Shown: positions 1-64,000 of the stretch, in pieces
How the letters are laid out: every line of letters starts with the position of its first letter
Numbering within the stretch: the stretch's first letter is position 1
IMG/VR virus record: IMGVR_UViG_3300029931_000011
DNA: 64,000 nucleotides
Reading direction: 5' to 3' (one strand)
DNA from: a virus
Notes under the pieces: model-generated
The model's input: only the letters and a program-made list of their open reading frames with translations
What the model was told of the DNA's origin: nothing
Database searches by the model: none
Position numbers and translations under genes: made by a program

Positions 1-218
1 TTCCAGAAGCCACGCTCGTCTCCGAACCGCTCCCCATACCGTGCACCGAGGTCGAACGACGCGGTCAGCGCCCCAGCCATGGCGAGGTTGCGGCCGAGGC
101 AGGCCATCGAATCCATGAACCGCACAGCGATGGCGCGAGCGTGGGTCGGGTACTGCCGCTCGTACTCATCAGGCACGAACATGAACGCCACATTCCACCA
201 GTTGACGAGACCGCTCAC
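1..218 (-). CDS. hypothetical protein, partial (3' part leaves window)
   Basis: Own translation from GTG 218 (1 nt after upstream stop 220-222) stays open to position 1: VSGLVNWWNVAFMFVPDEYERQYPTHARAIAVRFMDSMACLGRNLAMAGALTASFDLGARYGERFGDERGFW. It is not in the ORF track because it runs off the window. Confidence 0.5.
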   Translation of the reverse strand, partial: MSGLVNWWNVAFMFVPDEYERQYPTHARAIAVRFMDSMACLGRNLAMAGALTASFDLGARYGERFGDERGFW

Positions 219-219
219 G

Positions 220-960: not shown

Positions 961-961
961 C

Positions 962-1474: not shown

Positions 1475-1793
1475 TGGCTTCCTCCTCTATCGTCATCACC
1501 AGCCGGGTTAGCTGGTCACGCAGCCAGCGAACCTCCACCGTCGTGAGCCAGCCCAGCCCGCGACGCTCCATCACGCGATTGGCCTTCGGGTCGGCGACCT
1601 TCTCCGGCAGAACGCGCTCCAGGGTTATCTGCGTCAGTTCGCCGGGCTCGCGGAAGATGTGCAGCCGCCATCCGGGGTCGGCCTTGGGGTCGGGGTCGGG
1701 TAACACGACGTCGAAAGCGCGGTCCGGCTCCTCCTCGTCGGGGGTGCCCGCGCCCATTGCGCAGTAGCGATCGTAGTCGTCGGACTCGCTCAC
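1467..1793 (-). CDS. hypothetical protein
   Basis: Full ORF of 108 aa with balanced composition. Has a 4-nt overlap with the upstream gene and an 8-nt overlap with the downstream gene. Confidence 0.75.
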   Translation of the reverse strand: MSESDDYDRYCAMGAGTPDEEEPDRAFDVVLPDPDPKADPGWRLHIFREPGELTQITLERVLPEKVADPKANRVMERRGLGWLTTVEVRWLRDQLTRLVMTIEEEANE

Positions 1794-2197
1794 TTCGACC
1801 CCTCACCATCCCTGGGAGCCTCTGGAGCGAGGAGCAGGCGGAGCCTGTCAGCCCGTTCGTTGCTCTCCCACTTGTCGCGGAAGTACGGCGTGGCGTAGCC
1901 CCACCCCTCCTCCGCAAGATCGATCGCCTCCCTCAGCCACGCCTCCAGCTCCTCGAGCCTGGAGAGCAGGGCGTCGGCCGAGTTGCGCAGGGCGACGATG
2001 CCGGCGGCGTCGGGGTCGCCAGTCGTGGGGCCATTCTCGACGGTGCCCATCGTGGCGATGTGCGGCTCCCAGTCGTCACCCTCGTCGTCGGTGGACTGGT
2101 AGATGCTGACGGTCGGCCACGGACCGCAAACCTTCCATGGCCCCGGGCTCATCTTCGCCAGCACCTCGCGCAGTCCCTTCAGGTCTAGGTCACCCAT
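1790..2197 (-). CDS. hypothetical protein
   Basis: Full ORF of 135 aa (MGDLDLKGLREVLAKMSPGPWKV...), coupled to neighbours by short overlaps. Confidence 0.75.
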   Translation of the reverse strand: MGDLDLKGLREVLAKMSPGPWKVCGPWPTVSIYQSTDDEGDDWEPHIATMGTVENGPTTGDPDAAGIVALRNSADALLSRLEELEAWLREAIDLAEEGWGYATPYFRDKWESNERADRLRLLLAPEAPRDGEGSK

Positions 2198-2924
2198 TGC
2201 TCTCCTCCTTGGCCTTGAGTGCGGCGATGCCCGCCATCACCAGGGCAATGCCCAGGTCGATGGCAGCCGCGGGGTCATCTGGCGCTGTCACCCCTTTCCA
2301 GTTGCGACCAGAGATGGCGGCCTCAAGCGTCTGAAGGGGGACACCGAGAACTCGGGCGAGGTAGCTCGTGGATGCGCCGTGTGACTTCATCAAGAGCGCG
2401 TCGCTGACGATCTTCTCGGTGAGCGTGTTGCGTCTCGTGTTTCGGCTTTGCTCGTCGCGCGTCGCCCACCGGCAGTTTCCCGGCTCGTAACCCTTGTCGT
2501 TGTCGATGCGGTCAAGGGAGTGCACCGGGGAGGGCTTCGGCCCCATGTCCGCCAGAAACGACTCAAAGGAACCGGACCACCGGTCACAGACCGCAATTCC
2601 GCGTCCCACATAGTTGTGCGCGCCCCTCCTCGTCGACCGTCCGCATCGATCCTTCATGTTCATCCACGCCTGGTACTCGCTCTTGTGCATGGACCGGAGA
2701 ACGCTCGCTTCCTTGCGAGCGCATCCGCAACTCGGGGCCCCGCCACCGCGCGCGACCTGACGTGGACTGGCATCGTCGCGCTCGACGGCCCTTCCGCAAT
2801 CGCACTGGAACATCCAGAACCACGAGTGGCCGACCTTGCGTGTCCGCTCCCTCGCCACTAGTCGCCCGTATCTCGTACCCGGAGACGTGGGCGCCAGCAC
2901 CGGCTCGTCGCTACGCCGCGTCAT
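2190..2924 (-). CDS. HNH-like (His-Me finger-like) protein with C-terminal HTH, paralog 1 of 4
   Basis: ORF trimmed to ATG 2924, preceded by GGAGG. Motifs: CDCG...CGC zinc ribbon, YVGRGIAVCDRW, HSLDRIDNDKGYEPGNCRWAT, and HTH-like SYLARVLGVPLQTLEAAISG. Paralogs are at 13956, 26239 and 59604. Confidence 0.85.
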   Translation of the reverse strand: MTRRSDEPVLAPTSPGTRYGRLVARERTRKVGHSWFWMFQCDCGRAVERDDASPRQVARGGGAPSCGCARKEASVLRSMHKSEYQAWMNMKDRCGRSTRRGAHNYVGRGIAVCDRWSGSFESFLADMGPKPSPVHSLDRIDNDKGYEPGNCRWATRDEQSRNTRRNTLTEKIVSDALLMKSHGASTSYLARVLGVPLQTLEAAISGRNWKGVTAPDDPAAAIDLGIALVMAGIAALKAKEESNG

Positions 2925-3146
2925 CGCTTGCCTCCATCTCGGGTCTCGGTCTGCATCGCGTCTCCCTCGGTTGCTCTCGTGGTGAGCCGACGACGTGTCA
3001 CCGTCGCCGGCCCGGGCCGCCACGCTCGACATGGGCGGCCTTGTCGCCGTGCCTACGTTGAGGCGCGCGCACCGCGCTGCGGTACTGACGAGTCGGGACC
3101 GAGCCCGACCTCCTCGATTTGGTTCGAGTCGTCCATGGTGGTCACC

Positions 3147-3800
3147 TCAGAAGCGACGAAGCGCGCGAGCGATCGGCGACGGCTCGTGCGCGAGATCGGC
3201 GGTCGCGAACGGGATGTCGTCGTCGGGCCCGCCCCCGCCGTAGCTCGAGCCGGGCGCGTTCGGGTGCGCGTCGCGGCGCGGCGGCGGCGCGGTGCGGTTG
3301 GGCGGCGGCGCCGCCGACCGCTGCTGCTGGCCGCCTCCGTTGCCGCCGATCTTGCTCTTCATCTTGCGCGCGAAGTCGAGCACCTCAGCATCCGTCATCG
3401 CATTGCCCTTGAGGTCGACCTTCACCGCCCCGATGCGATTCACCCACTTCACCTTCGACCGCCACTTGCCGTCGTTGCCGAGCTTGAACTCGCGCACGAG
3501 CGACACCTCGCTGGCGCACGCACCGCCGTCGACGATCGCGGGGAGCTCGGAGAGGTCGTCTCCGGTCCACCCGCACGTGCGGAGACCGTCGATCGTGTAC
3601 TCGTAGAACGAACGGCCCTTGCTGCTGACGTCGTCCGAGAGCGAGGCGAACCACGTCTCGTACTTGCCGGCGTCCTCGCCGTCGAGGATCTTGAAGCGGC
3701 CGACGAGCTGCGGACGACGCACGCCCTCGTACTCGTCCCAGCCGAACTGGACGCCGCGCAGAACGCCGCGGCAGCGGATCTCGTAGGTGTCATTGCTCAT
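3147..3800 (-). CDS. SSB-like single-strand DNA-binding protein (recombination module)
   Basis: Trimmed to ATG 3800 (ATGA overlap with upstream stop 3797). A Gly/Pro-rich linker is followed by DDDIPF, the acidic tip motif of bacterial SSB, here followed by 24 more residues. Adjacent to the Sak4-like ATPase and the exonuclease. Confidence 0.75.
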   Translation of the reverse strand: MSNDTYEIRCRGVLRGVQFGWDEYEGVRRPQLVGRFKILDGEDAGKYETWFASLSDDVSSKGRSFYEYTIDGLRTCGWTGDDLSELPAIVDGGACASEVSLVREFKLGNDGKWRSKVKWVNRIGAVKVDLKGNAMTDAEVLDFARKMKSKIGGNGGGQQQRSAAPPPNRTAPPPRRDAHPNAPGSSYGGGGPDDDIPFATADLAHEPSPIARALRRF

Positions 3801-4966
3801 GGCGCGGTCTCCTCGGTGCTGGTCTCGGTCTCGGGGTTGCTGGTGTCGGTGTTGTTCGCGGTGGTCTCGATCGGCGTCGACTGCTGGAGGCCGACGAGGT
3901 AGCGGTGCAGCGCGCTGGTGTCGTCGCCGGCGCGGGCCACGGCCTTGCGCATGGCCTCGACGTGGACCGGGCGCTCGTCGGCGGACATGAACAGCGTGCC
4001 GAGCCGGTCGAGCTCGGCCTCGATGCTCTTGCGCAGGCCGTCGGGGCTCATCGAGTAGAGCGCCTCGAGTGCGTCTGCGAACGGTGCCCACTGCGCCTCG
4101 CTGGCCAGATCGATCTCCGACGGCATCGGCAGCGAGCACTTCGCCGCCCAGGTCGTCTTGCGCTGGAGGTGGATGATGCGGTTGCCCGAAACGCCGATCG
4201 CCTTACGGCCGATCTTCCGCACCGAGTCGTCGTAGGTGATGAACCCCACGACGTCGCACTTCTCGAGGAGCACGCCGGCGGCCTTCTCGTCGAGGCGCGG
4301 GCGGAAGATGTCGAAATCCTCGGCGAGCACCGACTTGTACTTGGCCACCACGGCGTGACCGAGGAGGATGACGTGCATCCCGGCCTTGAACCGGACGTCG
4401 TCGAGGCGCCGCACGAGGACGCGCCACATCTGGACGGCGATCTTCTGGCCGCTCGAGTAGCCGAAGTCCTCGATGTTCTCGATCTCCTTCCCCTCCTTGT
4501 TGCGGTGCCCGCGGGCCCGAGCGTCCTCGACGATGCGGTCGAAGATGAGCTGCTCGAGCGCGGCCACGCCGTCGAGCACGACGGTCTTGTAGCCGTACTG
4601 CTTCGCGTTCACGACGAGGTCGTCGAGCGCGTCTTCGACCTCGGTGAGCGTGCGCGCCACCGTGCCCTCGTCGCCCTCGGCGGGGCGGAACGGGTAGCGA
4701 GTCACGTGGAGATGGCGGGTGCGGCCCTCGATGTCGAGGAAGATCGGAGACGGCGCGTCGGCAGCGAGGCTCGACTTGCCGATGCCCTCGTCGCCGTAGA
4801 ACCAGAACAGCTTCGGATCGCGTCGGGCGCCGGCCACGACGGCGCCGAGCTTGGACGCCTTCACGGGTGCCGGGGCCGCCGGCTTGGCGGTCTGCGTCGT
4901 GCCGGACGCAGGGCGGGCGCCGTTGGCGGGCGCGGGACGAGGGACGGGTGCGGTGTTGGTCGCCAT
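3797..4966 (-). CDS. Sak4-like RecA-fold ATPase (AAA_24-type)
   Basis: Trimmed to ATG 4966 (GGAGG upstream). Walker A GDEGIGKS and Walker B-like KTVVLDG. Family resemblance is from memory only. Confidence 0.8.
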   Translation of the reverse strand: MATNTAPVPRPAPANGARPASGTTQTAKPAAPAPVKASKLGAVVAGARRDPKLFWFYGDEGIGKSSLAADAPSPIFLDIEGRTRHLHVTRYPFRPAEGDEGTVARTLTEVEDALDDLVVNAKQYGYKTVVLDGVAALEQLIFDRIVEDARARGHRNKEGKEIENIEDFGYSSGQKIAVQMWRVLVRRLDDVRFKAGMHVILLGHAVVAKYKSVLAEDFDIFRPRLDEKAAGVLLEKCDVVGFITYDDSVRKIGRKAIGVSGNRIIHLQRKTTWAAKCSLPMPSEIDLASEAQWAPFADALEALYSMSPDGLRKSIEAELDRLGTLFMSADERPVHVEAMRKAVARAGDDTSALHRYLVGLQQSTPIETTANNTDTSNPETETSTEETAP

Positions 4967-4989
4967 GCGATCGCTCCTCCTTCGAGCGG

Positions 4990-6027
4990 TCAGGGCTGCG
5001 CCGTGCGGCGCGGAAATCGCGTCTCGTCGGTTATGTCCGCCGAGCCGGTGCACAGGGGGATGAAGGCGCACGCGGCGCCGAACGAACGGCAGGCGTGCGT
5101 GTTGCCGCGGGGCCACATGTCGAGCACCTCGCACATGCGGGCCAGGCGGATCGTTTCGAGCAGATCGCTCCGCATCTTGGGGAGCTCGTCGTCGGTGCGC
5201 ACGATCGTCGCGCGCTGGTAGAACTTCTCCGGCGCGGATGCGATGGCGGCGCGCACGCGAGCGTCGAACGCCTCGGGGCTCTCGTCCTCGGCGCGCTGGT
5301 CCTCGTGGAGTCGCGGCTCCTCGAACCAGCCCGTCTGGTTGCAGGTCGCGCAGCCCTCGCCGCGCTTGATGCCACCCTTGCCGCCGTGCGTGCCGCCGCA
5401 GAGCTTGCAGCCCTTGCCCTTCGTGTACTTGCGATTCTCCTCGGGCGTGGCGAGGAGCCGGTCGTGCTTGGGCTTGCCGATCGCGTCGTAGATAACGCCG
5501 GCGATCTCGTAGCCGAGCATCGCGGCCCCGTCGACGTAGATCGAGACCTGTCGATCGATGGTGAGCATGTCCCAGTAGCCGGTCCCGGGCGCGATGTCGC
5601 TCACCGTGTTCTTGTGCTCGATGACGTAGATGCGGCCATCGGTCTCGTCCTGGATGATCCCGTCGATCACGCCCATGAGGACGTGGCCGCCGAGCTCGTA
5701 GCGGAAGCCGATCTCGGCGGCGAGCACGCGCCACGCGACGCCGCCCCAGCGCAGCTCGTAGCCGTCGATCACGGCGTGCGCCTTGATGGCGTCGACGGGC
5801 GACAGGTTCGCTTCGATGATGCGCGCGTGCGCGATCGCGAGCCGCGCTTCGGGGCCCTGGTCGTGGGCGAGCAGCCACGCCTCGAGCCCGGCGTGTACGC
5901 CCTTGCCGTACGCCTGCGCGTCGGTACCGGGCTCGATGAGCCGGTCGACGTACTTGTACTTGTACTTGCGCAAGCACGTGTGCAGCGTCGCAAGGCGCGA
6001 CGAGCTGTACTCGGTGAGGTCCTGCAT
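4990..6027 (-). CDS. PD-(D/E)XK exonuclease, Cas4/RecB-like with Fe-S-type Cys set
   Basis: Full ORF with AGGAG upstream. Motifs: GVIDGII..D, YVIEHK (ExK) and QVSIYVDG (QxxxY). One N-terminal Cys plus CRSFGAACAFIPLC. Carries an inserted CKLCGG...CATC zinc ribbon. Confidence 0.85.
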   Translation of the reverse strand: MQDLTEYSSSRLATLHTCLRKYKYKYVDRLIEPGTDAQAYGKGVHAGLEAWLLAHDQGPEARLAIAHARIIEANLSPVDAIKAHAVIDGYELRWGGVAWRVLAAEIGFRYELGGHVLMGVIDGIIQDETDGRIYVIEHKNTVSDIAPGTGYWDMLTIDRQVSIYVDGAAMLGYEIAGVIYDAIGKPKHDRLLATPEENRKYTKGKGCKLCGGTHGGKGGIKRGEGCATCNQTGWFEEPRLHEDQRAEDESPEAFDARVRAAIASAPEKFYQRATIVRTDDELPKMRSDLLETIRLARMCEVLDMWPRGNTHACRSFGAACAFIPLCTGSADITDETRFPRRTAQP

Positions 6028-6063
6028 GGAGTCTCCTGCGCACCCTCGGGCGCGCGGCTGGGG

Positions 6064-6270
6064 TCAGTGGGTGGCGAACGGCTCGCTCGTGAGCAGCTGG
6101 GCGGCCGCGTCGCTGGACAGGGTCAGGCACAGGTCCACGCGGTAGCCCTGCTCCGTGCTCGCCACGGCGAGCGTGCCGACGATCGGCGCCTGCGACTTGG
6201 CGAGGAGGGCGTCGAGCTCGCGCTGGAACGAGCGGATGAGGAGCGCGACGGTGTGGGCATTGCCGGTCAC
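6064..6270 (-). CDS. hypothetical small protein
   Basis: GTG 6270 forms a GTGA overlap with upstream stop 6267-6269. Translation: VTGNAHTVALLIRSFQRELDALLAKSQAPIVGTLAVASTEQGYRVDLCLTLSSDAAAQLLTSEPFATH. Confidence 0.5.
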   Translation of the reverse strand: MTGNAHTVALLIRSFQRELDALLAKSQAPIVGTLAVASTEQGYRVDLCLTLSSDAAAQLLTSEPFATH

Positions 6271-6629
6271 GGCAACCGCCTGGCAGCGGCCAGCCCGCGC
6301 TCCAGCTTGGCGATGCGCACGGCCTGCGCGAGCGGCACGGTCCCGGCGACACCCACGAGGAGCCGCGCCTGCATCCGGGCGTCGCCGAGGCGGCGCTCGT
6401 AGTGGGCGACGAGGACCTCGCGCATCTCGCGCCTGGTCTCGGGATCGAGGTCGCGCCACTCGGTGTGGCCGGCGCACGCGGCGAGGTCGCGGCCGAGATC
6501 GGCGGTGGCGCGGCGGATGACGGCGGGCGTCTCGAGGTCCTCCGGCGTCAGCGCCGACGTCTCGCGGGCGAAACGCGGGCGCTCGATGGCGCCGAAGGGC
6601 GGGGCGAGGGCTTCGCTGCGGGCGCGCAT
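6267..6629 (-). CDS. hypothetical protein
   Basis: ORF 6267..6674 trimmed to ATG 6629 (ATGA overlap with the upstream stop). Translation starts MRARSEALAPPFGAIERPRFARETSALTPEDLE... Confidence 0.7.
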   Translation of the reverse strand: MRARSEALAPPFGAIERPRFARETSALTPEDLETPAVIRRATADLGRDLAACAGHTEWRDLDPETRREMREVLVAHYERRLGDARMQARLLVGVAGTVPLAQAVRIAKLERGLAAARRLP

Positions 6630-6835
6630 CACGCAGCCGCCTTGATCGTCGAGACGCCCTTGCCGCGGAGCCACTCTCGCGCGGCCTGCACGAGCATCTC
6701 GCGTGACGGCGGCATCAGGCTCGCCTCGGCGTTCGGCGTCAGCGCCAGCGAGCGCGCGTACGAGCGCAGCGGGGTCTTCGGGCAGTCGCGGCGGTGCGCC
6801 GACTTGAGGCGCTTGCGCGGGCGGAACTTCTCCAT
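6629..6835 (-). CDS. hypothetical small basic protein
   Basis: ORF 6629..7075 trimmed to ATG 6835. Translation: MEKFRPRKRLKSAHRRDCPKTPLRSYARSLALTPNAEASLMPPSREMLVQAAREWLRGKGVSTIKAAA. Confidence 0.6.
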   Translation of the reverse strand: MEKFRPRKRLKSAHRRDCPKTPLRSYARSLALTPNAEASLMPPSREMLVQAAREWLRGKGVSTIKAAA

Positions 6836-6837
6836 GG

Positions 6838-7692
6838 TCAGGCCCCCTCCGTCGAAGCCGTCTGCTCGGCCGCGCACCTCTCGATGTCCTCCATCGCGCG
6901 CTCGTCGGTGGCGAAGAAGTGCGGCACGCGACCGGTGCTCGCGCGGTAGATCATCGCGCCCGCTTGCTGCGATCCGCACTCGCGCTCCAGCGCGGCGCCG
7001 GCCGGGCCGGCGAAGTGGATCGCCCAGCCAGCGCGGCAGTGCGTCGTACCGCACACGCCGCCCGAACCGTGCCACTGCGACATGTCGAGCACGCCGCCCT
7101 TGACGGTGACGGCGTCGAGGATACGAGCGTCGAGATTCTCGACGACGGGAACGTTCGGGTGGCGCTCACGGTACCGCCGCGCACGCTCGGCGAGCACTTC
7201 GCGCGTCGGCTCCTGGCGCACGTACGGCTCGGGCGGATCCGTCTTGTCGACGCCGCCTGGCAAGTTGATCGCGTCCGCGAGGTTGGCGTCCGCGAGGTTG
7301 GCGCCCGCGAGGTTGGCGCCCGCGAGGTCGGCGCGCGCGAGGTTGGCGTCCGCGAGGTCGGCGCCCGCGAGGTTGGCGCGCGCGAGGTTGGCGCCCGCGA
7401 GGTCGGCGCGCGCGAGGTTGGCGTCCGCGAGGTCGGCGCCCGCGAGGTTGGCGCCCGCGAGGTCGGCGCGCGCGAGGTTGGCGCCCGCGAGGTCGGCGCC
7501 CGCGAGGTTGGCGCCCGCGAGGTCGGCGCCCGCGAGGTCGGCGCCCGCGAGGTTGGCGCGCGATCCATCACCCTCGCCGTAGCGCCACGCTCGGTGCCTG
7601 GCTAGCACCTCGCTCAGCGCCTCGGCGAGTGAGGTGGCCGTATCGCTAGTGTAGAGCGCGACGTTCGTGAATCGGTTGCGGATGACGTACAT
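6838..7692 (-). CDS. pentapeptide-repeat protein with C-terminal Cys-containing domain
   Basis: Trimmed to ATG 7692 (MYVIRNRF). About 20 tandem A(D/N)LxG/A pentapeptides (ANLAGADLAGADLAGANLAGADL...). C-terminal domain contains CGTTHCRAGWAIHF. Confidence 0.9.
   Translation of the reverse strand: MYVIRNRFTNVALYTSDTATSLAEALSEVLARHRAWRYGEGDGSRANLAGADLAGADLAGANLAGADLAGANLARADLAGANLAGADLADANLARADLAGANLARANLAGADLADANLARADLAGANLAGANLADANLADAINLPGGVDKTDPPEPYVRQEPTREVLAERARRYRERHPNVPVVENLDARILDAVTVKGGVLDMSQWHGSGGVCGTTHCRAGWAIHFAGPAGAALERECGSQQAGAMIYRASTGRVPHFFATDERAMEDIERCAAEQTASTEGA
7271..7560. repeat. 15-bp tandem DNA repeat (cgcgaggtYggcgYc) encoding the pentapeptide repeats
   Basis: About 19 near-identical 15-bp units are visible directly in lines 7261-7560. 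They lie entirely inside CDS 6838..7692. Confidence 0.9.
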
Positions 7693-7694
7693 GA

Positions 7695-8237
7695 CTAGGC
7701 TGCCCCCTTCGGCGGAATCGGTCGGTCGTCGGCGCGCATCTCGTCGGCGATCTCGCCCAGGACGTTGCGCGCGTCGTTCACGTTGATCGATCGCTGGATG
7801 TGGTCGGCGAGCGCCTCGGGCGTCTCGCAGGTCGAGGCGGCTGCGGCGCGCTTGGCGTCGCGGGCGGCCATCGACTCGGCGATGTGGCGCCGCTGGCGAG
7901 CGAGTCGCGTGTCCAGCGGGATGACGTCGGCGCCGGCGGCCGTGACGCACGGGCACCTCGCCCCCGCCTCACCGTCCCCGACCGACCGCTGCCGCGTGTA
8001 CGGCCGCCCGTTGTCGTGCCACGTGATGAGCCCACGGTCCTCGAGCGCCGCCCACGTCTCGAACACCGTGAGCACGCCGAGGTTGCAGCCGGCGGGGTCG
8101 TAGATGGCACCATCGACACGACGCCAGCCGAGGCGGGTGAGCACGTCGGGGAGGAGGTCGACGCTGGCGTTGACGGCGAGCGGGATCGTGGGGACGCCGC
8201 GGGGCGGCGCCGTCTTGCGCGTGCGGGTGCGGGTCAC
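7695..8237 (-). CDS. hypothetical protein
   Basis: ORF 7695..8369 trimmed to GTG 8237 (GTGA overlap with upstream stop 8234). The protein-like part starts VTRTRTRKTAPPRGVPTIPLAVNASVDLLPDVLTRLGW... Confidence 0.65.
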   Translation of the reverse strand: MTRTRTRKTAPPRGVPTIPLAVNASVDLLPDVLTRLGWRRVDGAIYDPAGCNLGVLTVFETWAALEDRGLITWHDNGRPYTRQRSVGDGEAGARCPCVTAAGADVIPLDTRLARQRRHIAESMAARDAKRAAAASTCETPEALADHIQRSINVNDARNVLGEIADEMRADDRPIPPKGAA

Positions 8238-8770
8238 GACGCCTTCGCCTCGCGCTCGACGACCGCATCCGGCAGCCGCGTGATCCGTCGCTGGTAGTGG
8301 TCGCGGTCGTGGACCGTCTCGCTCTCGCCGACCTCCAGGCCGCTCACGTCGTCGTACCCGATCCCCCACCGAGCGCCGTCGCCGCGGAGGAACTGGCCGA
8401 GCGTCGTTTCGTACGTCTCGATCGACTCGTTCGCCTTGGGGTCGCCGGTCATGAGGGCGACCTCGATGCGAACGGCCAGATCGCGATCGATCTCGTCAGC
8501 CCTGCGCTCGTACCGCTCGATGTCGGCGCGGTCATCGTCCTTGAGCCGCTCGATCACCTCGGCGTCGGGCTGCGTGATGCACGCCAGCGCGCGATCGACG
8601 TGCGCACGGAGGTCGGACTCGCTCACCGCGTACCTGGACGAGCGGAGGATCTCGGTGGTGCCGCCGATACGGCGCGACATCACGAGCGACGACGGGTACT
8701 GGCCCGACGCCACGCGGTCGCGCAGGCGCGCCGCCATGCGGCGGTAGGTGTCGGCGTCGATCGCCGCCAT
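8234..8770 (-). CDS. hypothetical protein
   Basis: ORF 8234..8809 trimmed to ATG 8770 (ATGA overlap). Translation starts MAAIDADTYRRMAARLRDRVASGQYPSS... Confidence 0.75.
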   Translation of the reverse strand: MAAIDADTYRRMAARLRDRVASGQYPSSLVMSRRIGGTTEILRSSRYAVSESDLRAHVDRALACITQPDAEVIERLKDDDRADIERYERRADEIDRDLAVRIEVALMTGDPKANESIETYETTLGQFLRGDGARWGIGYDDVSGLEVGESETVHDRDHYQRRITRLPDAVVEREAKAS

Positions 8771-9378
8771 CACACGCCTCCCTGCCGCATCGACTGCTCG
8801 CGGAGCCACTCGTCAGCGACCTCGCGGAGCGAGAGCACCGGGATCTTGATCGTCGTCGGCTCCGTCGCGCCCTCGCGGAACGCCAGCCACTCGCGGGCCC
8901 TCGTCAGGTTCTCGGCGGCGACCGTGGCGACATCGCGCCCCTCGACCTCCTCCGTGATGATCTCGGCGAGCTCGCCGAACGCGAAGTGTGACTCGGCGAG
9001 CTCCTGCCCGCCGACCACCGACCAGTCGTCGTGGCGTCCCTGGCGGGCGAACTCGGTGACGCGCACCGTGGCGCCGTCGAGCGAGTAGGCGACGCGGTAG
9101 CTGTGGCCGTAGGTGTCGCAGTAGTCCGGCTCGATCGAGAGGATGTGGAGGCCCTCGGCCTCGTCGGCGTCCTCGATCTCGCCGCAGCCATCTTTGTGGA
9201 ACGCGACGCCGCCGCACTCACTGCACGCCGGCCCCCAATGCGAGGCGCCGCAGGTGGTGCAGCAGCAGTAGCAGGGGAAGGGTGAGACGGACTGCCCGAC
9301 GCCGCCCGGCGAAGGCTCGGAGGGGGTTGCCGTTGACCCGGCCGAGACCGGGGAACCTGCGAGCGGGGCGTCGAGCAT
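8770..9378 (-). CDS. hypothetical Cys-rich protein, first gene of the early-left operon
   Basis: Full ORF of 202 aa with N-terminal CYCCCTTCGASHWGPACSECGG. The ATG lies 6 nt after the -10 box of a TTGACA-17-TACTGT promoter. Confidence 0.75.
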   Translation of the reverse strand: MLDAPLAGSPVSAGSTATPSEPSPGGVGQSVSPFPCYCCCTTCGASHWGPACSECGGVAFHKDGCGEIEDADEAEGLHILSIEPDYCDTYGHSYRVAYSLDGATVRVTEFARQGRHDDWSVVGGQELAESHFAFGELAEIITEEVEGRDVATVAAENLTRAREWLAFREGATEPTTIKIPVLSLREVADEWLREQSMRQGGV

Positions 9379-17858: not shown

Positions 17859-18689
17859 GCGCCGCGCACGTCGAACGCGGCGACGGCTGGGAGTTGCATC
17901 TCGGCGACTGTCTGAACGGTCTCTCGCTCCTCAACGACAGGAGCGTGACCGTGACGATCACGGATCCGCCGTACGAGGCTGAGGCGCACACCGAGGGCCG
18001 GCGCCAACTCGGCAAGGATCGCGCCGGCACGCACAAGGGAAGCGGCGGTCGATATCGCAAGGTGCTAGAGACGCCGCTGGCCTTCGCGCCGATCGCGAAC
18101 GTCGATCGCGTGGCTGTTGCTGCACAGATCGCGCGCGTCACGCAGCATCGTGCGCTCGCGTTCTGTCAGGCCGAGGCCGTCGCGGACTGGCGCGATGCCT
18201 TCAACGCAGGCGGCATCCCGTATCGACGGGCGATGCCGTGGGTGAAGCCCGACGCGATGCCGTCGCTCCATGGACGGTGGCCGGGACAGTCGTACGAGTC
18301 GATCGTGCTCGCGATGCACCCGTCGGCGCCGCCGTGCCCGGTGGGGGGGCGCCTCGCGACGCTACGAGTTCACGCGCGACGCGGCGCTCTACCGCCGGCA
18401 CGGCGAGAAGAAGACCGGCGAGGCCGCGCCGCACCCGACGATGAAGCCGCTCGACCTGATGCTACAGCTGGTCCTGGACTTCACCGAGCCCGGTGATCTC
18501 GTGCTCGACCCGTTCGCGGGCAGCGGAACCACCGGCGTGGCGTGTCTCTCGCTTGGTCGCCGTTTCGTCGGCTGGGAGATCGACGAGGCGTTCTTCGAGG
18601 TCGCGTGTCGTCGGCTCCGTGGCGAGCGCGCTGTGCCGCGGCCCGAGCAGCCAGACCTGTTCGCATCCACGCCAACGGAGGCCGCATGA
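17855..18689 (+). pseudogene. beta-class N6A/N4C DNA methyltransferase interrupted by a +1 frame change at a G7 run
   Basis: ORF 17855..18496 carries TDPPY (motif IV). ORF 18270..18689 carries HPTMKP and DPFAGSGTT (motif I). Removing one G of 18343-18349 joins ...PPCPVGG to ASRRYEFTRD... into a single 277-aa ORF. Confidence 0.8.
18343..18349 (+). repeat. G7 homopolymer at the methyltransferase frame break
   Basis: gtgggggggc read directly from the sequence. Confidence 0.95.
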
Positions 18690-41292: not shown

Positions 41293-41336
41293 CGTCGAGC
41301 ACCGTGCGCCCGCGTCCGTCGAGGATCCACATTCGG

Positions 41337-41408
41337 TAGCAGGGGCGAGAATCGAACTCGCTTCTGCTCGGGTATGAGCCGAGCGCGCAGCCGGAGCGCC
41401 TCCCTGCA
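41337..41408 (-). tRNA. tRNA with CAU anticodon (Met, or Ile2 if lysidine-modified), 72 nt
   Basis: Hand-folded cloverleaf: TGCAGGG AG GCGC TCCGGCT GCGC G CTCGG CTCATAC CCGAG CAGAA GCGAG TTCGATT CTCGC CCCTGCT A. All stems are Watson-Crick except position 1-72 (T-T). U33, A37 and G53-C61 are present. Position 8 is A, not U. Confidence 0.75.
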
Positions 41409-58843: not shown

Positions 58844-59638
58844 ATGCCCTCGTTCCTCTCCCGCCTTCTCGCGCCCTTCCTCGCGACGTGGCGCCAGCTC
58901 CTCACGCCGCCCGCCATCCCGTCCACCGACGTGCTGATGAGCGAGACGGAGTCCGAGATCGATGCCGACGTGATCGAGGCATGCGGCAAGCTGGCGATGG
59001 CACGCCTGACCGAACTGTGGCGGCAGGATATCTACGACCCTCGCCACACCGAGACGAGCGAGAACGCCGAGCGGTGCCGCGCTGCGATCCTCGACATCAT
59101 CCACAACGGCGGCGGGTGGCGGTGGATCAAGCGATACGGCGGCGACGGCGCACCCGCGGCAGAGCACGCCGAGTGGTGCGGCTTCACGCAGGCGTGGGCG
59201 TGGGCGCCGTGGATCCCCGAGGAGACGCGGAAGACGTGGTGGGCGTCGACGTACCGGCTCGATGCGTGGGCGCGCTATGCGGCGCTCGACATGAGCGGGA
59301 AGACCACGCCGAACCCGAAGCCGGCGCGCGGGCCCTTCCGCCTCTACGTCAAGCTCGACGAGCACTCGACGAAGCTTCCATTCCAGCCGCAGGCCGGTGA
59401 CATCCTGCTCGTGGGCGACGGGAAGCCTGACTACGGCGACCACGTCTGCGGCGTGCTCGGGTACGACGAGAAGCGGCGGATGTTTTCTACGTTAGAAGGA
59501 AACGGCGGCGGCCTAGGGCCAGATGGAAAGAAGCAGCACGGTCTAGTGAAGGCCGAACGCCCCCTTGGGGCGACGTCCGGTCACTCGTACCACGCGCGGC
59601 GCCTCATCCGGCTTTCGCCGTCGGACCTGATTCCGTAG
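58844..59638 (+). CDS. endolysin, CHAP/NlpC-P60-like cysteine peptidase/amidase
   Basis: Full ORF of 264 aa. Candidate catalytic residues are Cys (EHAEWCGFTQAW) and His (GDHVCGVLGY), then STLEGNGGG. The last ~50 codons are A/T3-rich. Confidence 0.75.
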   Translation: MPSFLSRLLAPFLATWRQLLTPPAIPSTDVLMSETESEIDADVIEACGKLAMARLTELWRQDIYDPRHTETSENAERCRAAILDIIHNGGGWRWIKRYGGDGAPAAEHAEWCGFTQAWAWAPWIPEETRKTWWASTYRLDAWARYAALDMSGKTTPNPKPARGPFRLYVKLDEHSTKLPFQPQAGDILLVGDGKPDYGDHVCGVLGYDEKRRMFSTLEGNGGGLGPDGKKQHGLVKAERPLGATSGHSYHARRLIRLSPSDLIP

Positions 59639-60310
59639 CCCACGCGCCGTCGTTGAGTACGTGGCTGACGGCTGACTCCGAGCAGCCGACCGCGTCGGAG
59701 ATGGCCTTGTAGCTGTTGCCTTCTGACCGCAGCGCGCGAATGCGTTCCGCCTTCTCCGGGGTGAGAACGACACCGCGACGATTCCTCGCCTGTGTCGTCG
59801 GCAGCGCCCACCGGCAGTTGCCCGGCTCGTAACCCTTGGTGCCGTCGACGCGATCGATGGAGTGACGCTTCGACGGGCGCGGGCCCATGTCGGCGAGGAA
59901 CGCCGCGAAGCTCTCGCGCCAGCGGTCGCACACGGTGATTCCGCGGCCGCCATAGTCCGCGTAGTCGCCGCAGTTCGTGTCGGCGCACCGCTGGCGCATC
60001 CGCTTCCACAGGCCGAAGTCCGGGTGGCGTCGCTCGTCAGCGCGAGCGAGCCCATGCCTGAACTTGACCCTCGAGATACGCTCAGCCGCGCCCTCGCGCT
60101 GAAAGCATCCGCACGAGCGGGTCTTGCCGTTGCGAAGGGTTCCTGCGCGGACCACTAGTTCGCCGCCGCAGTCGCAGCGGCAGTGCCATGCAGCGTCTTT
60201 CCACTCGGGCTTGGCGACGCGCTCGATGACGAGAAGCCGCCCGAACCGCTGACCGCGCAAGTCAATGAATGCCGGCATGTGACATCGATAGTCACGAATA
60301 CCGGCGGCGC
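59480..60310. mobile_element. putative homing cassette: recoded endolysin 3' end plus HNH-like gene
   Basis: Compositionally atypical (A/T-ending codons). Bounded on the right by the orphan native endolysin tail at 60311-60400. Boundaries are approximate. Confidence 0.5.
59604..60278 (-). CDS. HNH-like protein with zinc ribbon and C-terminal HTH, paralog 4 of 4
   Basis: Full ORF of 224 aa. Motifs CRCDCG...CGC, YGGRGITVCDRW, HSIDRVDGTKGYEPGNCRWAL and HTH-like SYKAISDAVGCSESAVSHVLNDGAW. Confidence 0.85.
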   Translation of the reverse strand: MPAFIDLRGQRFGRLLVIERVAKPEWKDAAWHCRCDCGGELVVRAGTLRNGKTRSCGCFQREGAAERISRVKFRHGLARADERRHPDFGLWKRMRQRCADTNCGDYADYGGRGITVCDRWRESFAAFLADMGPRPSKRHSIDRVDGTKGYEPGNCRWALPTTQARNRRGVVLTPEKAERIRALRSEGNSYKAISDAVGCSESAVSHVLNDGAWATESGPTAKAG

Positions 60311-60400
60311 AAGGCCGAGCGACCGCTGGGCGCGCGCTCGGGCCACGGCTACCACGCGCGACGGCTGATCCGCGTGGCCCCGCACGACCTTATCGGGTAG
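60311..60400 (+). pseudogene. orphan 3' end of the endolysin gene (29 codons + TAG)
   Basis: Translates KAERPLGARSGHGYHARRLIRVAPHDLIG*, against the endolysin C-terminus KAERPLGATSGHSYHARRLIRLSPSDLIP*. No start codon or upstream coding context. Confidence 0.7.
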
Positions 60401-60646
60401 CTAGCGCGCGTCGAAACAGCCGCGCGGGCACTCGTAGCCATCCTCGTACACCGTGCCGCAGCGGCCACACGTGACCATGCCGTGGTCGCGGCAGCGCGCG
60501 CAGAGGCGCGGCTCGGAGCCGAGGTGGACAGCCAGGAACTGCGGCCCTTCGATGCTGGGATCGGGCGCGGCCGCCGGGTTGTCGCGCCGCTCGCCGCAGG
60601 ACGGGCAGTGGAAGGAAACGGGGACGATCACGTTTCGCGCTCCCAT
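60401..60646 (-). CDS. hypothetical zinc-ribbon protein
   Basis: Full ORF of 81 aa. Motifs CPSCG...CARC...CGRCG...CPRGC. Confidence 0.65.
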   Translation of the reverse strand: MGARNVIVPVSFHCPSCGERRDNPAAAPDPSIEGPQFLAVHLGSEPRLCARCRDHGMVTCGRCGTVYEDGYECPRGCFDAR

Positions 60647-60987
60647 GATGCTGGCTGCGGTCGCGCGGCTGTGTCGAGGTCGATGTTCTCGAATGCCGTG
60701 TGCTCCTCGGGACGGATGAGTACCTGCACGAAGTCATCGTCGACGTCCTCGGGCTCGATCGCGGCGCGCACTACAGCGACAAGGTTCTCGACGTCGAGGT
60801 GATTGACGGCACCGACGAGAACGCGCCCGTTCATGATCTTCGACCCGTCGTGTGCATGGTCGGCGACGGCGAAGAGGCGAACGCTTTGGCTCTCCCACAG
60901 CGCGGTGTTGATGCGATCGATCATCCGCTGCTCGACCTCGGGGTCGCCGGACGGGATCGCGACGATGACGTCGGTGACGCGGCTCAT
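60628..60987 (-). CDS. hypothetical protein
   Basis: ORF 60628..61197 trimmed to ATG 60987 (ATGA overlap). 119 aa. Confidence 0.7.
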   Translation of the reverse strand: MSRVTDVIVAIPSGDPEVEQRMIDRINTALWESQSVRLFAVADHAHDGSKIMNGRVLVGAVNHLDVENLVAVVRAAIEPEDVDDDFVQVLIRPEEHTAFENIDLDTAARPQPASWERET

Positions 60988-61535
60988 CGCTCCCTCGGTG
61001 GTAGCACGGCGCCCTGGCGTACGACGGCGCGCGGCCGCTGCCATGTCCACGGCACGTGAGCGTGCCGCTCCACGAGACCCATGATCTCGAGCTGGGACAG
61101 GGCATCCATGAGGGCGTCCGTGGACGGCCGCTCGGATTCGACGAAGCGGTCGGCGATCTCGTCGAGACCGAAGGCGAAGTCGCCGAGAATGAACCACACC
61201 TCGAAGACGATGCCGCCCTTCGCCTTCAGGCGTTCCGCGATCTCGCGATCCCGGCTGCGGTCCGGGCGGTTGCCGCGCACGAGCCTCGGCGGCCCTGGCG
61301 GCTCCACCTCATCGACCGCCGCCTGCAGCGCCGCGATCACCTCGCGGGCCTTGGCGGGGGAGAGCCACACGCCAGCGGCCTCGTAGTCCTCGTGCACGCT
61401 CAGCATGATCGGAGACGACGGCCCAGGGCAGTCGCGCGCGCGAGGCTCGCCAGCCGCGAAGTCGGCGAGCGTCTCGACCGTCACCTCATGCTCGTGGTCG
61501 GCGGGGCGGCCGTCGGGGATCTTGATGGTGGTCAT
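60984..61535 (-). CDS. hypothetical protein with winged-helix-like C-terminus
   Basis: Full ORF of 183 aa. C-terminal STDALMDALSQLEIMGLVERH. Confidence 0.75.
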   Translation of the reverse strand: MTTIKIPDGRPADHEHEVTVETLADFAAGEPRARDCPGPSSPIMLSVHEDYEAAGVWLSPAKAREVIAALQAAVDEVEPPGPPRLVRGNRPDRSRDREIAERLKAKGGIVFEVWFILGDFAFGLDEIADRFVESERPSTDALMDALSQLEIMGLVERHAHVPWTWQRPRAVVRQGAVLPPRER

Positions 61536-61897
61536 GCTGGCGCTCCTCGGTACGTGTCGAATCCCTCGAACCCTCGATCACGCAGCCTGTTCACGACGAG
61601 CTTCTCGATCGCGGCCTCGTGCGCAGCTCGGCTGTCGGTGAGCTGCCCGAGCAGCGTGGGCACGGTGTCGAGGTTGATCGTCTCGGCGGCCCGCTGGCCT
61701 GCGAAGCAGCCGTGCGCCTCGACGGTGAGCACGGAGGTGCGGCGCGCGATCTCGCCCCGCTCGGGGTCGCCGGGCTCGGAGTAGATAACGCCGCTCACCT
61801 CGCAGTACGCGCCGCACGCGCGGCACCGGGTGTAGGCGGTCGGGCCTTGGACCTCGATGGTGTCGGGGATCTGGATCGCGTCGTCGGGCATGGTCAT
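61532..61897 (-). CDS. hypothetical protein
   Basis: Full ORF of 121 aa with an ATGA overlap with the next gene. Confidence 0.75.
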   Translation of the reverse strand: MTMPDDAIQIPDTIEVQGPTAYTRCRACGAYCEVSGVIYSEPGDPERGEIARRTSVLTVEAHGCFAGQRAAETINLDTVPTLLGQLTDSRAAHEAAIEKLVVNRLRDRGFEGFDTYRGAPA

Positions 61898-61902
61898 CCT
61901 CC

Positions 61903-62127
61903 TCAGTCAAGCGTCAGCGTCTTCAGGTCGAGTCGCACCGCTTCCCGCGCGACGGCGTAGCGTTCGGCATGGAACGGCGGCTCGGTTGGCGACGGCATGT
62001 TCTTCACGAACCACGTGCAGCGTACCGCTACGGCGGCAGAGCACGTCGGGCACTCGACACCGAGCGCCGCCATCGGCGTCAGAATCTCGGTGAGGCGCGC
62101 GAGGGCGCGGTCTTTTGCATCTGCCAT
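61903..62127 (-). CDS. hypothetical small Cys protein
   Basis: ORF 61903..62244 trimmed to ATG 62127 (AGGAG 5 nt upstream). Translation starts MADAKDRALARLTEILTPMAALGVECPTCSAAVAVRCTW... Confidence 0.6.
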   Translation of the reverse strand: MADAKDRALARLTEILTPMAALGVECPTCSAAVAVRCTWFVKNMPSPTEPPFHAERYAVAREAVRLDLKTLTLD

Positions 62128-62153
62128 GAGGGCTCCTGTTGTAGCGTGTCGGG

Positions 62154-62567
62154 GTGAGAACGTGCTCGACCTGCGGCTGCCGCGCGCCGCTCTGCCGTGA
62201 GTGCTGCGATGCCGCGCTCGACCAGTTCCGAGGCGTCGCGGCACTGCGCGGGCTGCTCCTCGGCGAGTCCGCGCGTACGCGTCGCCCGAGCAGCCCGCCG
62301 ACGGAGGCCGAAGCCCGCGAGAAGGTCCGCGACCTCGCCGCCGGCGACGAGCGCCTGGTCGAGCTGCTCGCGCGCGTCTGCGCCGACGCGGCCGCGCTCG
62401 AGTACGCCGAGCCGACGCAGCGGCCGGGCGGGGTGGCGTTCACCGTCGGGTGCGAGGCGTCGCATCAGCTGACCAGCGGCAGGAAGGTGCGCGCGGATCT
62501 GTCGCCGAGTTGGCGCGGCGAGAAGCGAGCGCCCGCCCACTCCGCCCATGGGATGCGCTTGTCGTAG
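62154..62567 (+). CDS. hypothetical Cys-rich protein on the opposite strand
   Basis: ORF of 137 aa from GTG 62154 (CSTCGCRAPLCRECC...). More protein-like than the two minus-strand shadow frames. No clear RBS. The last ~100 nt overlap the radical SAM gene end. Confidence 0.5.
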   Translation: MRTCSTCGCRAPLCRECCDAALDQFRGVAALRGLLLGESARTRRPSSPPTEAEAREKVRDLAAGDERLVELLARVCADAAALEYAEPTQRPGGVAFTVGCEASHQLTSGRKVRADLSPSWRGEKRAPAHSAHGMRLS

Positions 62568-63454
62568 GCGCCCACCACCCACCGTTGGAAGCCGACGAGC
62601 TCGGGCGTCCGAACAAATGGCATCGGGTAGGGTCGAGCTCCGAACTCGCGAAGCCTCGCCCGACGGTGATCGCGATCCTCGTGCGTCTCGCCCGGCCAGT
62701 AGCCGACGAGCATGTAGACCATGATGTGGTCAGGCTTCACGCCGTGCTTCACTAGCGCCTCGAGGCCGGCGAAGAGCCGCGCCTCGTCCTTGCGGTTGTC
62801 CCAGGCGGTGTAGATGCGGCGCACCTTCATCGAATCGTCGCGGTAGTCGACGCTCGCGATCGCGGCCGCCGCCTCGTCGTTGAGGACGCGCGCGTTGATG
62901 CCCTGCGAGAAGCACACCTTGAAGCGCCCGGCGCGGAGCTCGTCGATGCGCGCGGGCCAGTCGGGGTTGCCGAAGAAGTCGTTGTCGAGGAGCACGACCT
63001 CGCGCGGCGCGTCTCCGCCGCGCCAGATGTCGGCGATGCTGGCGGCGGACCGGATCGCGCCTTCCTTGCGAGGTACGACGCAGAACGGGCACCGCAGGCG
63101 GCAACCACGCTGCGTGAAGCCGATCGACTGCCGGTACTTCGGGTACACGCTGTAGTCGGGCGCAGCCGCGACGCCGAGCTGCTCGACCGTGGTGGTGAAG
63201 TCCCAGCCGGTTCCGCCAAGAACCGCGCCGGGGTAGATGCACGCGACGCGCTCGCCCAGCGCCCGCGTGCGTTCGAAGATCAGGGAGCCGTAGACACGGT
63301 CCCACTTCGGGTCGCCGAGCTCGGGCTCGACCGCGGCGGCGTTGCCGGCGTGCCGGAGCACGACGTCATCCCCGGCGGCGCGGTGGTGCGCGGCGAGCCG
63401 CATCAGGGCGAGGTTCGGAAGCCGCCCGTCGAGGTGGAGGAGCAGGACCTTCAC
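62465..63454 (-). CDS. radical SAM enzyme with N-terminal B12-binding-like domain
   Basis: Full ORF of 329 aa. CX3CX2C cluster in TQRGCRLRCPFCVVPRKEG. N-terminus MKVLLLHLDGRLPNLALMRLAAHHRAAGDDVVL. The GTG start forms a GTGA overlap with the int stop. Confidence 0.85.
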   Translation of the reverse strand: MKVLLLHLDGRLPNLALMRLAAHHRAAGDDVVLRHAGNAAAVEPELGDPKWDRVYGSLIFERTRALGERVACIYPGAVLGGTGWDFTTTVEQLGVAAAPDYSVYPKYRQSIGFTQRGCRLRCPFCVVPRKEGAIRSAASIADIWRGGDAPREVVLLDNDFFGNPDWPARIDELRAGRFKVCFSQGINARVLNDEAAAAIASVDYRDDSMKVRRIYTAWDNRKDEARLFAGLEALVKHGVKPDHIMVYMLVGYWPGETHEDRDHRRARLREFGARPYPMPFVRTPELVGFQRWVVGAYDKRIPWAEWAGARFSPRQLGDRSARTFLPLVS

Positions 63455-64000
63455 GATTCCTCGGCGGCGCGCATGACGGCGAGCCCGAGATCGCAGGCCG
63501 ATCGGACTGCACCAAGTCTTGGTGCAGCACCGCCGTCGTCGGCGGATGTCCCTGGATCCGGTGCGCCGTGACCACGTGGGGTTGCGGTCGGCGATGAGCC
63601 GCCGAGAACCGAGGGTCGTTCCTTCGAACCCCTCCTCCGGAGCCCATCACCACCAGTCATTGCGGGCGCTTCCGACGACTGCACCATGACTGCACCAAAC
63701 CGCGCCGCCGCGACGGCCGGCAGCGGGATGATCTCGCCGCCGCTCGACCGGTGCAGGCGCAGCTTCGCGAGCTCGCGGCAGACGATCTCCCACTGCCGCC
63801 CGCGGTTGTAACCGTCGAAGGCCGAGCGCGACTTCTTCGTGTGCGTCACGCGCGTCTCGAGGATGTGCTCGTCGGCGCCGTCCTCGAGCGCCAGGGTGAT
63901 GAACGTCGCCCGCATGTCGTAGTGCCGCCGCGGCCGGAAGCCGAGCGCCGGCAGGTCCTCGTCGCGCCAGCGGCGCGCCGAGTAGTAGGTCGGCCGGAAC
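63451..64000 (-). CDS. int: tyrosine integrase, C-terminal part (5' end beyond window)
   Basis: The frame is open to position 64000. Motifs ...RRHYDMRATFITLALEDGA... and VTHTKKSRSAFDGY (catalytic Tyr region). A ~119-codon low-complexity extension follows before the stop at 63451. Confidence 0.85.
   Translation of the reverse strand, partial: FRPTYYSARRWRDEDLPALGFRPRRHYDMRATFITLALEDGADEHILETRVTHTKKSRSAFDGYNRGRQWEIVCRELAKLRLHRSSGGEIIPLPAVAAARFGAVMVQSSEAPAMTGGDGLRRRGSKERPSVLGGSSPTATPRGHGAPDPGTSADDGGAAPRLGAVRSACDLGLAVMRAAEES
63507..63527. repeat. palindrome CTGCACCAAG-T-CTTGGTGCAG (two inverted ACTGCACCA-type sites)
   Basis: Read directly from the sequence. The same motif recurs as a tandem at 63677-63698. 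Confidence 0.7.
63611..63646 (+). other. tRNA 3'-end-like segment, candidate attP core
   Basis: GAGGGtcgttccTTCGAACCCCTCCTCCGGAGccca. TTCGAAC resembles a T-loop, CCCTC a 3' T-stem, CTCCGGA a 3' acceptor strand, and G a discriminator. No complete cloverleaf can be drawn. Confidence 0.4.
63677..63698. repeat. tandem direct repeat GACTGCACCA x2 (arm-type site candidates)
   Basis: gactgcaccatgactgcaccaa read directly from the sequence. Confidence 0.65.

Follow-up and report, generated by a model that had tools for sequence, protein, structure and literature searches.

Phage-borne proteins of the family PHROG 9298 are encoded by Clostridium phage phiCT453B (gp19), the Bacteroides LoVEphage (QVQ57207) and an archaeal virus (vir215_00033), and searches of the literature found none of its members to have been characterised. 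Described enzymes with which its members can be compared are the methylthiotransferases MiaB, RimO and MtaB and the class B radical S-adenosylmethionine (SAM) enzymes MgmA (9CCB), Mmp10 (7QBU) and TsrM (6WTE). We examined a radical SAM gene of this family in a 64,000-nucleotide (nt) stretch of viral DNA (IMG/VR record IMGVR_UViG_3300029931_000011, referred to here in its entirety as the window), the start codon of which overlaps the stop codon of a tyrosine integrase gene (int). With respect to gene layout, the attP sites of myxophage Mx8 (intP/attP) and phage lambda (int/attP/sib) reportedly lie within the int frame or just past it, so that integration alters the int 3' end and parts int from downstream sequences. 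The present locus is like these systems in having attP within or just after the int frame and in the splitting of int from downstream sequence on integration; it is unlike them in that the tail of Int seems to be an unconserved read-through and in that the gene parted from int encodes a radical SAM enzyme. The account that we favour, with a probability of roughly 0.55, is that read-through of the int frame across attP explains the overlap and that the radical SAM protein is a stand-alone PHROG 9298 enzyme which modifies phage DNA or a nucleotide precursor.

The overlap described in the original prediction was confirmed in the sequence, with the int-frame TGA at 63451-63453 and the GTG of the radical SAM gene at 63454 forming a GTGA stop/start. 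An attP site extending from approximately 63505 to 63698 was located inside the int open reading frame (ORF), with the conserved part of int on one side and the radical SAM gene on the other. Comparison with the closest relative (L047, with a radical SAM protein 88% identical) detected one retained island, TTCGAACCCCTCCTCCGGAGCC on the plus strand, that resembles the T-loop, T-stem and acceptor end of a tRNA. A scan of metagenomes with a 22-nt pattern yielded 15 exact matches, and 8 of these 15 were the 3' end of a tRNA-Asn(GTT) gene. Positions 1-3167 of one contig (L005) matched a host contig (L128) with 99.84% identity, and its positions 3144-4394 matched window positions 63646-62396 with 99.5% identity; L128 contains an intact tRNA-Asn gene followed by a serine recombinase gene. 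As the two L005 matches share 24 nt that are equal to the core, L005 represents attR, L128 represents an empty attB and positions 63623-63646 of the window are the attP core. Both features of a tRNA-targeting attP were found: the core equals a tRNA gene 3' end, and a junction of host and prophage was observed. The phage integrates into the tRNA-Asn gene.

In the prophage, int lies at attL and the radical SAM gene lies at attR, at the opposite end, where 168 nt of phage DNA plus the core separate it from host sequence. Since attP is placed between int and the radical SAM gene, the two are apart in the lysogen and coupling is possible only on the circular genome, following infection or excision. 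Coexpression with int in the lysogen, as had been proposed, was contradicted by this arrangement. The predicted length of Int after integration is 447 instead of 498 amino acids (aa), the ORF ending 51 codons sooner.

The integrase was matched by Phage_int_M (using the full gene in contig L001) and by the phrog_1 integrase family. The GC content at third codon positions (GC3) in the int frame was ∼1.0 down to ∼63760 and then 0.4 to 0.7 until the radical SAM gene. A 50% identical integrase in contig L142 aligned with the window Int to residue 398 and no further, and the L142 int ORF crosses the shared 22-nt core in another frame than the window int ORF. When the window was compared to L047, the int core and the radical SAM gene aligned well and the intervening ∼280 nt were poorly kept except for a few islands. 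These results indicated that the conserved integrase stops near residue 398-400 (∼63750) and that the final ∼100 codons (63451-63750) are a read-through tail over attP. The int ORF reaches the GTG of the radical SAM gene because no stop codon breaks the int frame across attP in a genome of 70% GC, and our calculation gave a chance of ∼18% for 90 stop-free codons at the GC content of the window. Overall, the int/radical SAM overlap is a by-product of gene layout, and a caution follows for high-GC phage genomes, in which open frames can extend through non-coding sites.

Candidate arm-type integrase sites flank the core (Table 1). The exact decamer TGGTGCAGTC occurs in three copies in 64 kb, every one of them within 63505-63697, and the observed count of matches was reached by 0 of 100 shuffles. 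An inverted repeat of the same motif type is situated 50-70 nt upstream of the radical SAM start, with its inverted partner at 63518-63527. All four copies of the motif read GGTGCC in L047, in which the inverted repeat has the form GGCACCAA-AGC-TTGGTGCC. This joint change suggested that the sites are coevolving with a binding protein, for which Xis or the arm-binding domain of Int is a possible candidate.

Two other interpretations were considered. Interpretation of L005 as a variant phage with a serine integrase beside the radical SAM gene was ruled out, as this contig is a prophage-host junction and the recombinase is host-side DNA. A location of attP or attB inside the radical SAM gene, comparable to that of Streptomyces phages integrating into host radical SAM genes, was ruled out by inspection of contigs L013 to L016. 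The L013 copy (8019-8744) has an N-terminal truncation and is fused to, or adjoins, a methyltransferase fragment; the L014 and L016 copies are frameshifted; and the "split" L015 copy (2960-9065) has a 4.8-kb insertion after residue ∼85 that is unannotated and transposon-like in appearance. A stray 60-nt duplicate of radical SAM codons 267-286 was noted in L012 (3089-3148), ∼700 nt upstream of the gene. L012, L013 and L015 are damaged copies in prophages of metagenome-assembled genomes (MAGs).

A large serine recombinase gene, reading towards the tRNA, lies directly downstream of the host tRNA-Asn (L128 3876-5177; L005 1648-2952) and may belong to another element integrated at this locus. The junction of yet another element at the tRNA-Asn core, with a related recombinase, was present in L132. 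In L142 (region 4796-6984), a papain-like ORF follows the related int in place of the radical SAM gene, and the site beside attP thus appears to hold variable cargo.

The identity of the enzyme was examined by profile, motif and structural comparisons. A full-length match to phrog_9298 was obtained (E = 7.3e-45; residues 1-282 against profile positions 1-259 of 305), and the gene is a member of this already known, uncharacterised phage family. The GTG start was supported by 120 homologs, which begin at the matching position with a common MxVLLL N terminus, and a GAGGA Shine-Dalgarno-like sequence that is kept in L047 is located 3 nt upstream. The CX3CX2C motif is present as GCRLRCPFC, with C118, C122 and C125 invariant in 120 close and 45 diverse homologs. 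Pfam Radical_SAM (PF04055) matched with an E value of 1.6e-6 and a score of 28.8 bits, just under the 29.5 cutoff, and 34 of the 45 diverse family members matched this profile at E <= 0.01. An AlphaFold2 model, which had a pLDDT of 94.1 and a pTM of 0.88, contained a four-stranded beta-alpha-beta Rossmann-like domain (residues 1-85), a partial TIM barrel of alternating beta and alpha elements (residues 110-280) and C-terminal helices. The protein is a genuine member of the radical SAM superfamily, and both this identity and the Rossmann-like N terminus agreed with the original prediction.

No subfamily could be assigned, as that prediction had also stated. Searches of the protein against NCBIfam, PADLOC and, with phmmer, the PDB gave no meaningful subfamily match, and the TIGR00089 score was 15.8 bits against a cutoff of 251. 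A profile of the family reached only MiaB, MgmA (9CCB), RimO, TM_1862 and TsrM in the PDB, with E values of ∼1e-3 upward and with matches confined to the cluster loop and the next strand. Foldseek detected no PDB structure below E = 1e-3 and ranked TIM barrels above radical SAM enzymes; Mmp10 was the sole radical SAM enzyme among the PDB matches listed, with a partial alignment and an E value above 0.01. Matches in BFVD were weak, the best named one being a giant-virus tRNA methylthiotransferase (TMq 0.57). There was no similarity of the protein to viperins or QueE.

The protein is like MiaB, RimO and MtaB in having an N-terminal flavodoxin- or Rossmann-like domain followed by a radical SAM barrel, a GCxxxCxFCxVPxxxG loop and an LLGQN/LLDNN strand. 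It is unlike them in lacking the TRAM domain and the Cys triad of the auxiliary [4Fe-4S] cluster, and its matches were at ∼1e-3 and 21 bits as against cutoffs of >250. The triad was sought in the N-terminal domain and was absent; the single Cys of this domain, C72, is non-conserved, and no invariant or near-invariant Cys was detected outside CX3CX2C in the 120 and 45 homologs. With MgmA, Mmp10 and TsrM, the protein shares a Rossmann-like domain plus a radical SAM domain and weak profile or Foldseek matches, and we take its beta1-loop-helix pattern to resemble the N termini of B12-binding domains. It differs from these class B enzymes in that its N-terminal domain of ∼85 residues and four strands is not a recognisable B12-binding domain. 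A Pfam scan of the protein detected no TRAM or other nucleic-acid-binding domain, no B12-binding (PF02310) or SPASM/twitch domain and no recognition element of the kind associated with ribosomally synthesized and post-translationally modified peptides (RiPPs), and PF02310 was matched by only 1 of the 45 family members (E = 0.0048). Overall, the scaffold distantly resembles the group with a Rossmann domain plus a radical SAM domain, that is, the methylthiotransferases and the B12-dependent enzymes, without their defining extras.

The family proved to be large and associated with phages. More than 5154 homologous proteins were detected at E <= 1e-5, and the best 120 were 66-88% identical. The family comprised 1749 clusters at 50% identity. 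At least 583 IMG/VR viral contigs carried homologs, as counted using a profile of an 8-sequence alignment; together with the phrog_9298 match, this count indicated a phage-linked rather than a housekeeping enzyme. Copies of 63-71% identity were present in MAGs of Acidobacteriota, Galbitalea (Actinomycetota) and Sideroxydans (Betaproteobacteria), and members of 27-34% identity were found in Clostridium, Bacteroides, Oscillospiraceae and Marinitoga phages and in Methanomassiliicoccales viruses. The window protein has the length and domain order of the PHROG 9298 members and their PNLALM, DYSxY, RGCxxxCxFCxVxxKEG, LLDN, QGxxxR and AWD motifs. It is unlike the members from isolated phages in being just 27-34% identical to them, and it sits in a high-GC clade, the members of which share 63-88% identity with it. 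Two homologs (P0126 and P0141) contain a Hint and LAGLIDADG intein directly before the third Cys of CX3CX2C, which from its position would be the +1 nucleophile of the intein. Proteins of replication and nucleotide metabolism are typical hosts of inteins, which tend to sit at their conserved catalytic sites. A further homolog (P0238) is an uninterrupted fusion of a radical SAM protein (residues 3-307) and a phage-type Dam DNA N6-adenine methyltransferase (residues 309-448; PF05869, E = 4e-30).

Gene neighbourhoods were compared in 112 non-redundant homolog loci from IMG/VR, GTDB MAGs, metagenomes and phage isolates. A conserved partner gene was sought in 38 and then in all 112 loci, and none was found; the commonest neighbour family was present in 11 loci. 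Tyrosine recombinases were encoded within the flanks in 15/112 loci and within 700 nt in 8/112, and the only serine recombinase neighbour was the host-side gene of the L005 junction. The 4-nt int/radical SAM overlap was kept in L047 and was seen only there, so that conservation of the int linkage was borne out for one relative and not for the family. The lack of a partner gene and the rarity of integrase proximity indicated that the radical SAM gene is a stand-alone module and that the position beside attP is one context among many. Genes for DNA methyltransferases were detected in a flank in 30 of the loci, and a methyltransferase, Mom-like or PP-loop gene was detected in 41. The recurrent neighbours comprised ParB-N6/N4 DNA methyltransferases (18 loci, adjacent in 6), C5 methyltransferases (12 loci), Mom-like genes (6 loci) and PP-loop/PAPS-reductase-like genes (12 loci), and the large terminase subunit was encoded nearby in 26 loci (adjacent in 13). 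Contig L020 has the order C5 methyltransferase, radical SAM, D12 methyltransferase, one ORF and Mom; a methyltransferase gene overlaps the radical SAM start in Oscillospiraceae phage NatCom_21982; and PAPS reductase and Dam genes are near the radical SAM gene of the LoVEphage. In most phages, the gene is located in the replication, modification or terminase-proximal region.

The strong conservation across hosts of different phyla suggested a substrate that all of them share, for instance DNA, RNA, nucleotides or SAM. The methyltransferase, Mom-like and PP-loop neighbours, the radical SAM-Dam fusion and the inteins favoured, as circumstantial evidence, a modification of nucleic acid. Our best guess from these comparisons is that the protein would be a stand-alone nucleic-acid-modifying enzyme, with DNA as the most likely target, and to this extent the modification role that had been put forward for it is retained. 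The enzyme is predicted to bind one [4Fe-4S] cluster via C118, C122 and C125 and to cleave SAM to produce a 5'-deoxyadenosyl radical. Its action would require no partner, would take place during lytic growth and would be directed at a universal substrate, for which phage DNA or a nucleotide precursor is the likeliest candidate; the modification would aid escape from host restriction alongside the DNA methyltransferases whose genes often adjoin it. A more tentative extension is that the PHROG 9298 proteins might form a novel class of radical SAM enzymes, each acting by itself to place an undescribed, anti-restriction modification on phage DNA or its precursors; a base could, for instance, undergo radical C-methylation or C-alkylation, with or atop DNA methylation, and phages of many bacterial and archaeal phyla would employ this measure.

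Several observations weigh against the favoured account. The methyltransferase association was found in only 27% of loci, a figure without a background rate for comparison, and in many phages, methyltransferase, HNH and terminase genes are grouped in any case. The N6/N4 methyltransferase gene of the window phage is ∼20-45 kb from the radical SAM gene, and the nearest relatives in sequence and structure (MiaB, RimO, MgmA and Mmp10) modify tRNA or proteins, not DNA. With regard to read-through, the window and L047 differ in the int tail by substitutions with some third-position excess (0.27, 0.37 and 0.52 by codon position), which suggested that the tail may be translated and weakly constrained. 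These findings are of interest not for the way in which the locus is arranged but for the PHROG 9298 family at large, which may represent a new kind of nucleic-acid-modifying enzyme. An abundant, conserved family with inteins at the catalytic motif and one Dam fusion is a reasonable target in the search for new nucleic-acid chemistry or anti-restriction strategies, and the window phage, with host attB and attP defined, is a workable entry point.

The explanation offered originally, in which an int-coupled radical SAM gene heads an accessory operon, shares the expression of int, either at establishment or in the lysogen, and provides a modification-based defence or counter-defence, is unlikely. 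The overlap is real and is kept in L047, and xis, int, the radical SAM gene and the small ORFs are co-directional on the circular genome; furthermore, the prophage copy adjoins attR, a typical site of accessory cargo at which the related int/attP module of L142 holds a different gene. Against these points, attP separates the two genes in the lysogen, the int tail is without a coding signature, a tyrosine integrase is close by in only 8 of the 112 loci, and the gene lies mostly in the replication, modification or terminase-proximal region of other phages. The operon did not withstand comparison either, as the downstream ORFs are missing in L047 and never recur with homologs, and the defence role found no counterpart in PADLOC, where no family matched the radical SAM protein or its neighbours at E <= 0.1 (eight proteins scanned). 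The small ORFs could alternatively be substrates of the enzyme, which would then be a RiPP-like peptide or protein maturase. Cys-rich small ORFs do lie nearby (60401-60646, 61903-62127 and 62154-62567) and the closest B12-dependent matches, MgmA and Mmp10, modify proteins, but none of these ORFs travels with the radical SAM gene in the 112 other loci or in L047 and the enzyme has neither a SPASM/twitch domain nor a RiPP recognition element, making this the least probable of the functions considered.

Modification of tRNA or another RNA through a stripped-down methylthiotransferase-like scaffold, with escape from anticodon nucleases or tuning of translation as possible benefits, is doubtful but deserves more weight than either of these. 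MiaB and RimO were the best PDB profile matches, by way of the RGCxxxCxFCxVPxxxG and LLxxN motifs, the best named BFVD match (TMq 0.57) was a tRNA methylthiotransferase, and the high conservation across host phyla would fit a universal RNA substrate. In the LoVEphage, an RtcB tRNA ligase is encoded ∼1 kb downstream of the radical SAM gene, and the window phage carries a tRNA-Met gene; both points also favour this reading. These similarities to known enzymes are all marginal, however (E ∼1e-3), the protein lacks TRAM or another RNA-binding domain as well as the auxiliary-cluster Cys triad at its N terminus, and DNA is the target of both the fusion partner and the neighbours that recur. A target among small molecules or in the nucleotide pool, with the enzyme making or destroying a modified nucleotide or signal or simply consuming SAM, would agree with a stand-alone gene that has no partner, with the absence of a nucleic-acid-binding domain detectable by Pfam and with the nucleoside deoxyribosyltransferase-like and PP-loop genes that sometimes adjoin the radical SAM gene. 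As co-occurrence and one fusion with SAM-dependent methyltransferases speak against SAM depletion and the protein has no viperin or QueE similarity, we regard such a role as improbable, to about the same degree as the int-coupled operon. Modification of phage DNA or its precursors by a stand-alone enzyme remained the favoured function.

Table 1. Features of the int/radical SAM locus (positions are those of the 64,000-nt window)
Feature	Position	Strand	Remarks
Tyrosine integrase ORF, 3' part	63451..64000	-	Runs past window end; 498 aa, complete in L001
Two direct copies of TGGTGCAGTC	63677..63697	-	Candidate arm-type integrase sites, int side of core
attP core TTCGAACCCCTCCTCCGGAGCCCA	63623..63646	+	24 nt, identical to 3' end of host tRNA-Asn(GTT)
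Inverted repeat CTGCACCAAG-A-CTTGGTGCAG	63505..63527	-	TGGTGCAGTC-type motif; candidate arm sites or operator
Radical SAM gene	62465..63454	-	329 aa; GTG start at 63454
Opposite-strand gene, probable	62154..62567	+	Convergent with radical SAM gene, overlaps its 3' end
Small zinc-finger protein	61903..62127	-	74 aa (56 aa from alternative start); PF24623 Phage_zn_bind_8, E = 1.6e-7, over curated cutoff
121-aa ORF	61532..61897	-	No family match; GC3 0.89
183-aa ORF	60984..61535	-	No significant family match; ATGA overlap with 121-aa ORF; GC3 0.88
119-aa ORF	60628..60987	-	No family match; ATGA overlap with 183-aa ORF; GC3 0.82
Cys-rich ORF, 76-81 aa	60401..60646	-	Three CxxC and one CxxxC; GC3 0.89-0.91; weak zinc-ribbon-like matches
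HNH endonuclease, C-terminal helix-turn-helix (HTH)	59604..60278	-	phrog_374, E = 6e-62; HTH matches; last gene of same-strand block

Downstream of the radical SAM gene, the predicted series of small coupled ORFs was present and tightly spaced, with ATGA overlaps and a GTGA overlap at the junction of the 119- and 76-aa ORFs (Table 1), but the chain is probably interrupted by the opposite-strand ORF. This ORF had the best coding signature in its interval (GC contents by codon position of 0.77, 0.62 and 0.92), and its residues 32-98 were 55% identical in L047, where they are called as a 67-aa opposite-strand gene; these two properties indicated that the supposed operon is probably broken at this point. 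The Cys-rich N terminus of the ORF was not kept in L047. It was called as a gene in contigs L002 and L003, and gene callers were split between it and a 128-aa minus-strand ORF.

Some details of the small ORFs differed from the original description. The winged-helix-like character of the 183-aa ORF rests on a Pfam DprA_WH match with an E value of 0.069, which is not significant, and the 81-aa ORF does not have the four CxxC pairs ascribed to it, one of the four being CxxxC. The same-strand block does not end at 60401 but reaches the HNH gene. The 121-, 183-, 119- and 81-aa ORFs and the HNH gene were all missing from L047, and none of the small ORFs recurred beside homologs in the 112 loci. These results indicated that the small ORFs beside the radical SAM gene are, in the window, a separate mosaic insert.

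The window is ∼64 kb out of one temperate phage genome of ∼65.5 kb, with a GC content of ∼70%. The exact radical SAM protein was present on 19 metagenome contigs, 15 of which were 50-200 kb. In four long contigs of 65.4-65.7 kb, the gene is at quite different positions, which indicated that they are circularly permuted assemblies of a single ∼65.5-kb phage genome. One strand carries, in order, PDDEXK_1 nuclease and AAA_24 ATPase genes (early genes), an HTH_17 Xis-like gene, int, the radical SAM gene, the small ORFs and the HNH gene, beyond which are convergent genes and then the terminase and portal genes. A megablast search with 24 kb of the window against a phage isolate collection gave no match and hence no close isolate relative, and a promoter and terminator scan and an Rfam search over 59400-64000 detected nothing.

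Additional features of the phage were observed. On one short contig of this phage (L006), int has a frameshift ahead of the catalytic Tyr, and a stretch of N lies just upstream of the radical SAM gene; both are probably assembly artefacts. A tblastn search seeded with ParB-methyltransferases located an N6/N4-type DNA methyltransferase gene at ∼18340-18640 (plus strand; E values down to 1e-14), and a tRNA-Met (CAT) gene is located at 41335-41408 on the minus strand. Two HNH-type endonuclease genes are present, one upstream (L001 5217-5717; 166 aa) and one at 59604-60278 of the window (224 aa), and in tblastn searches both proteins matched positions 4905-5189 of contig L010, which suggested a shared domain.

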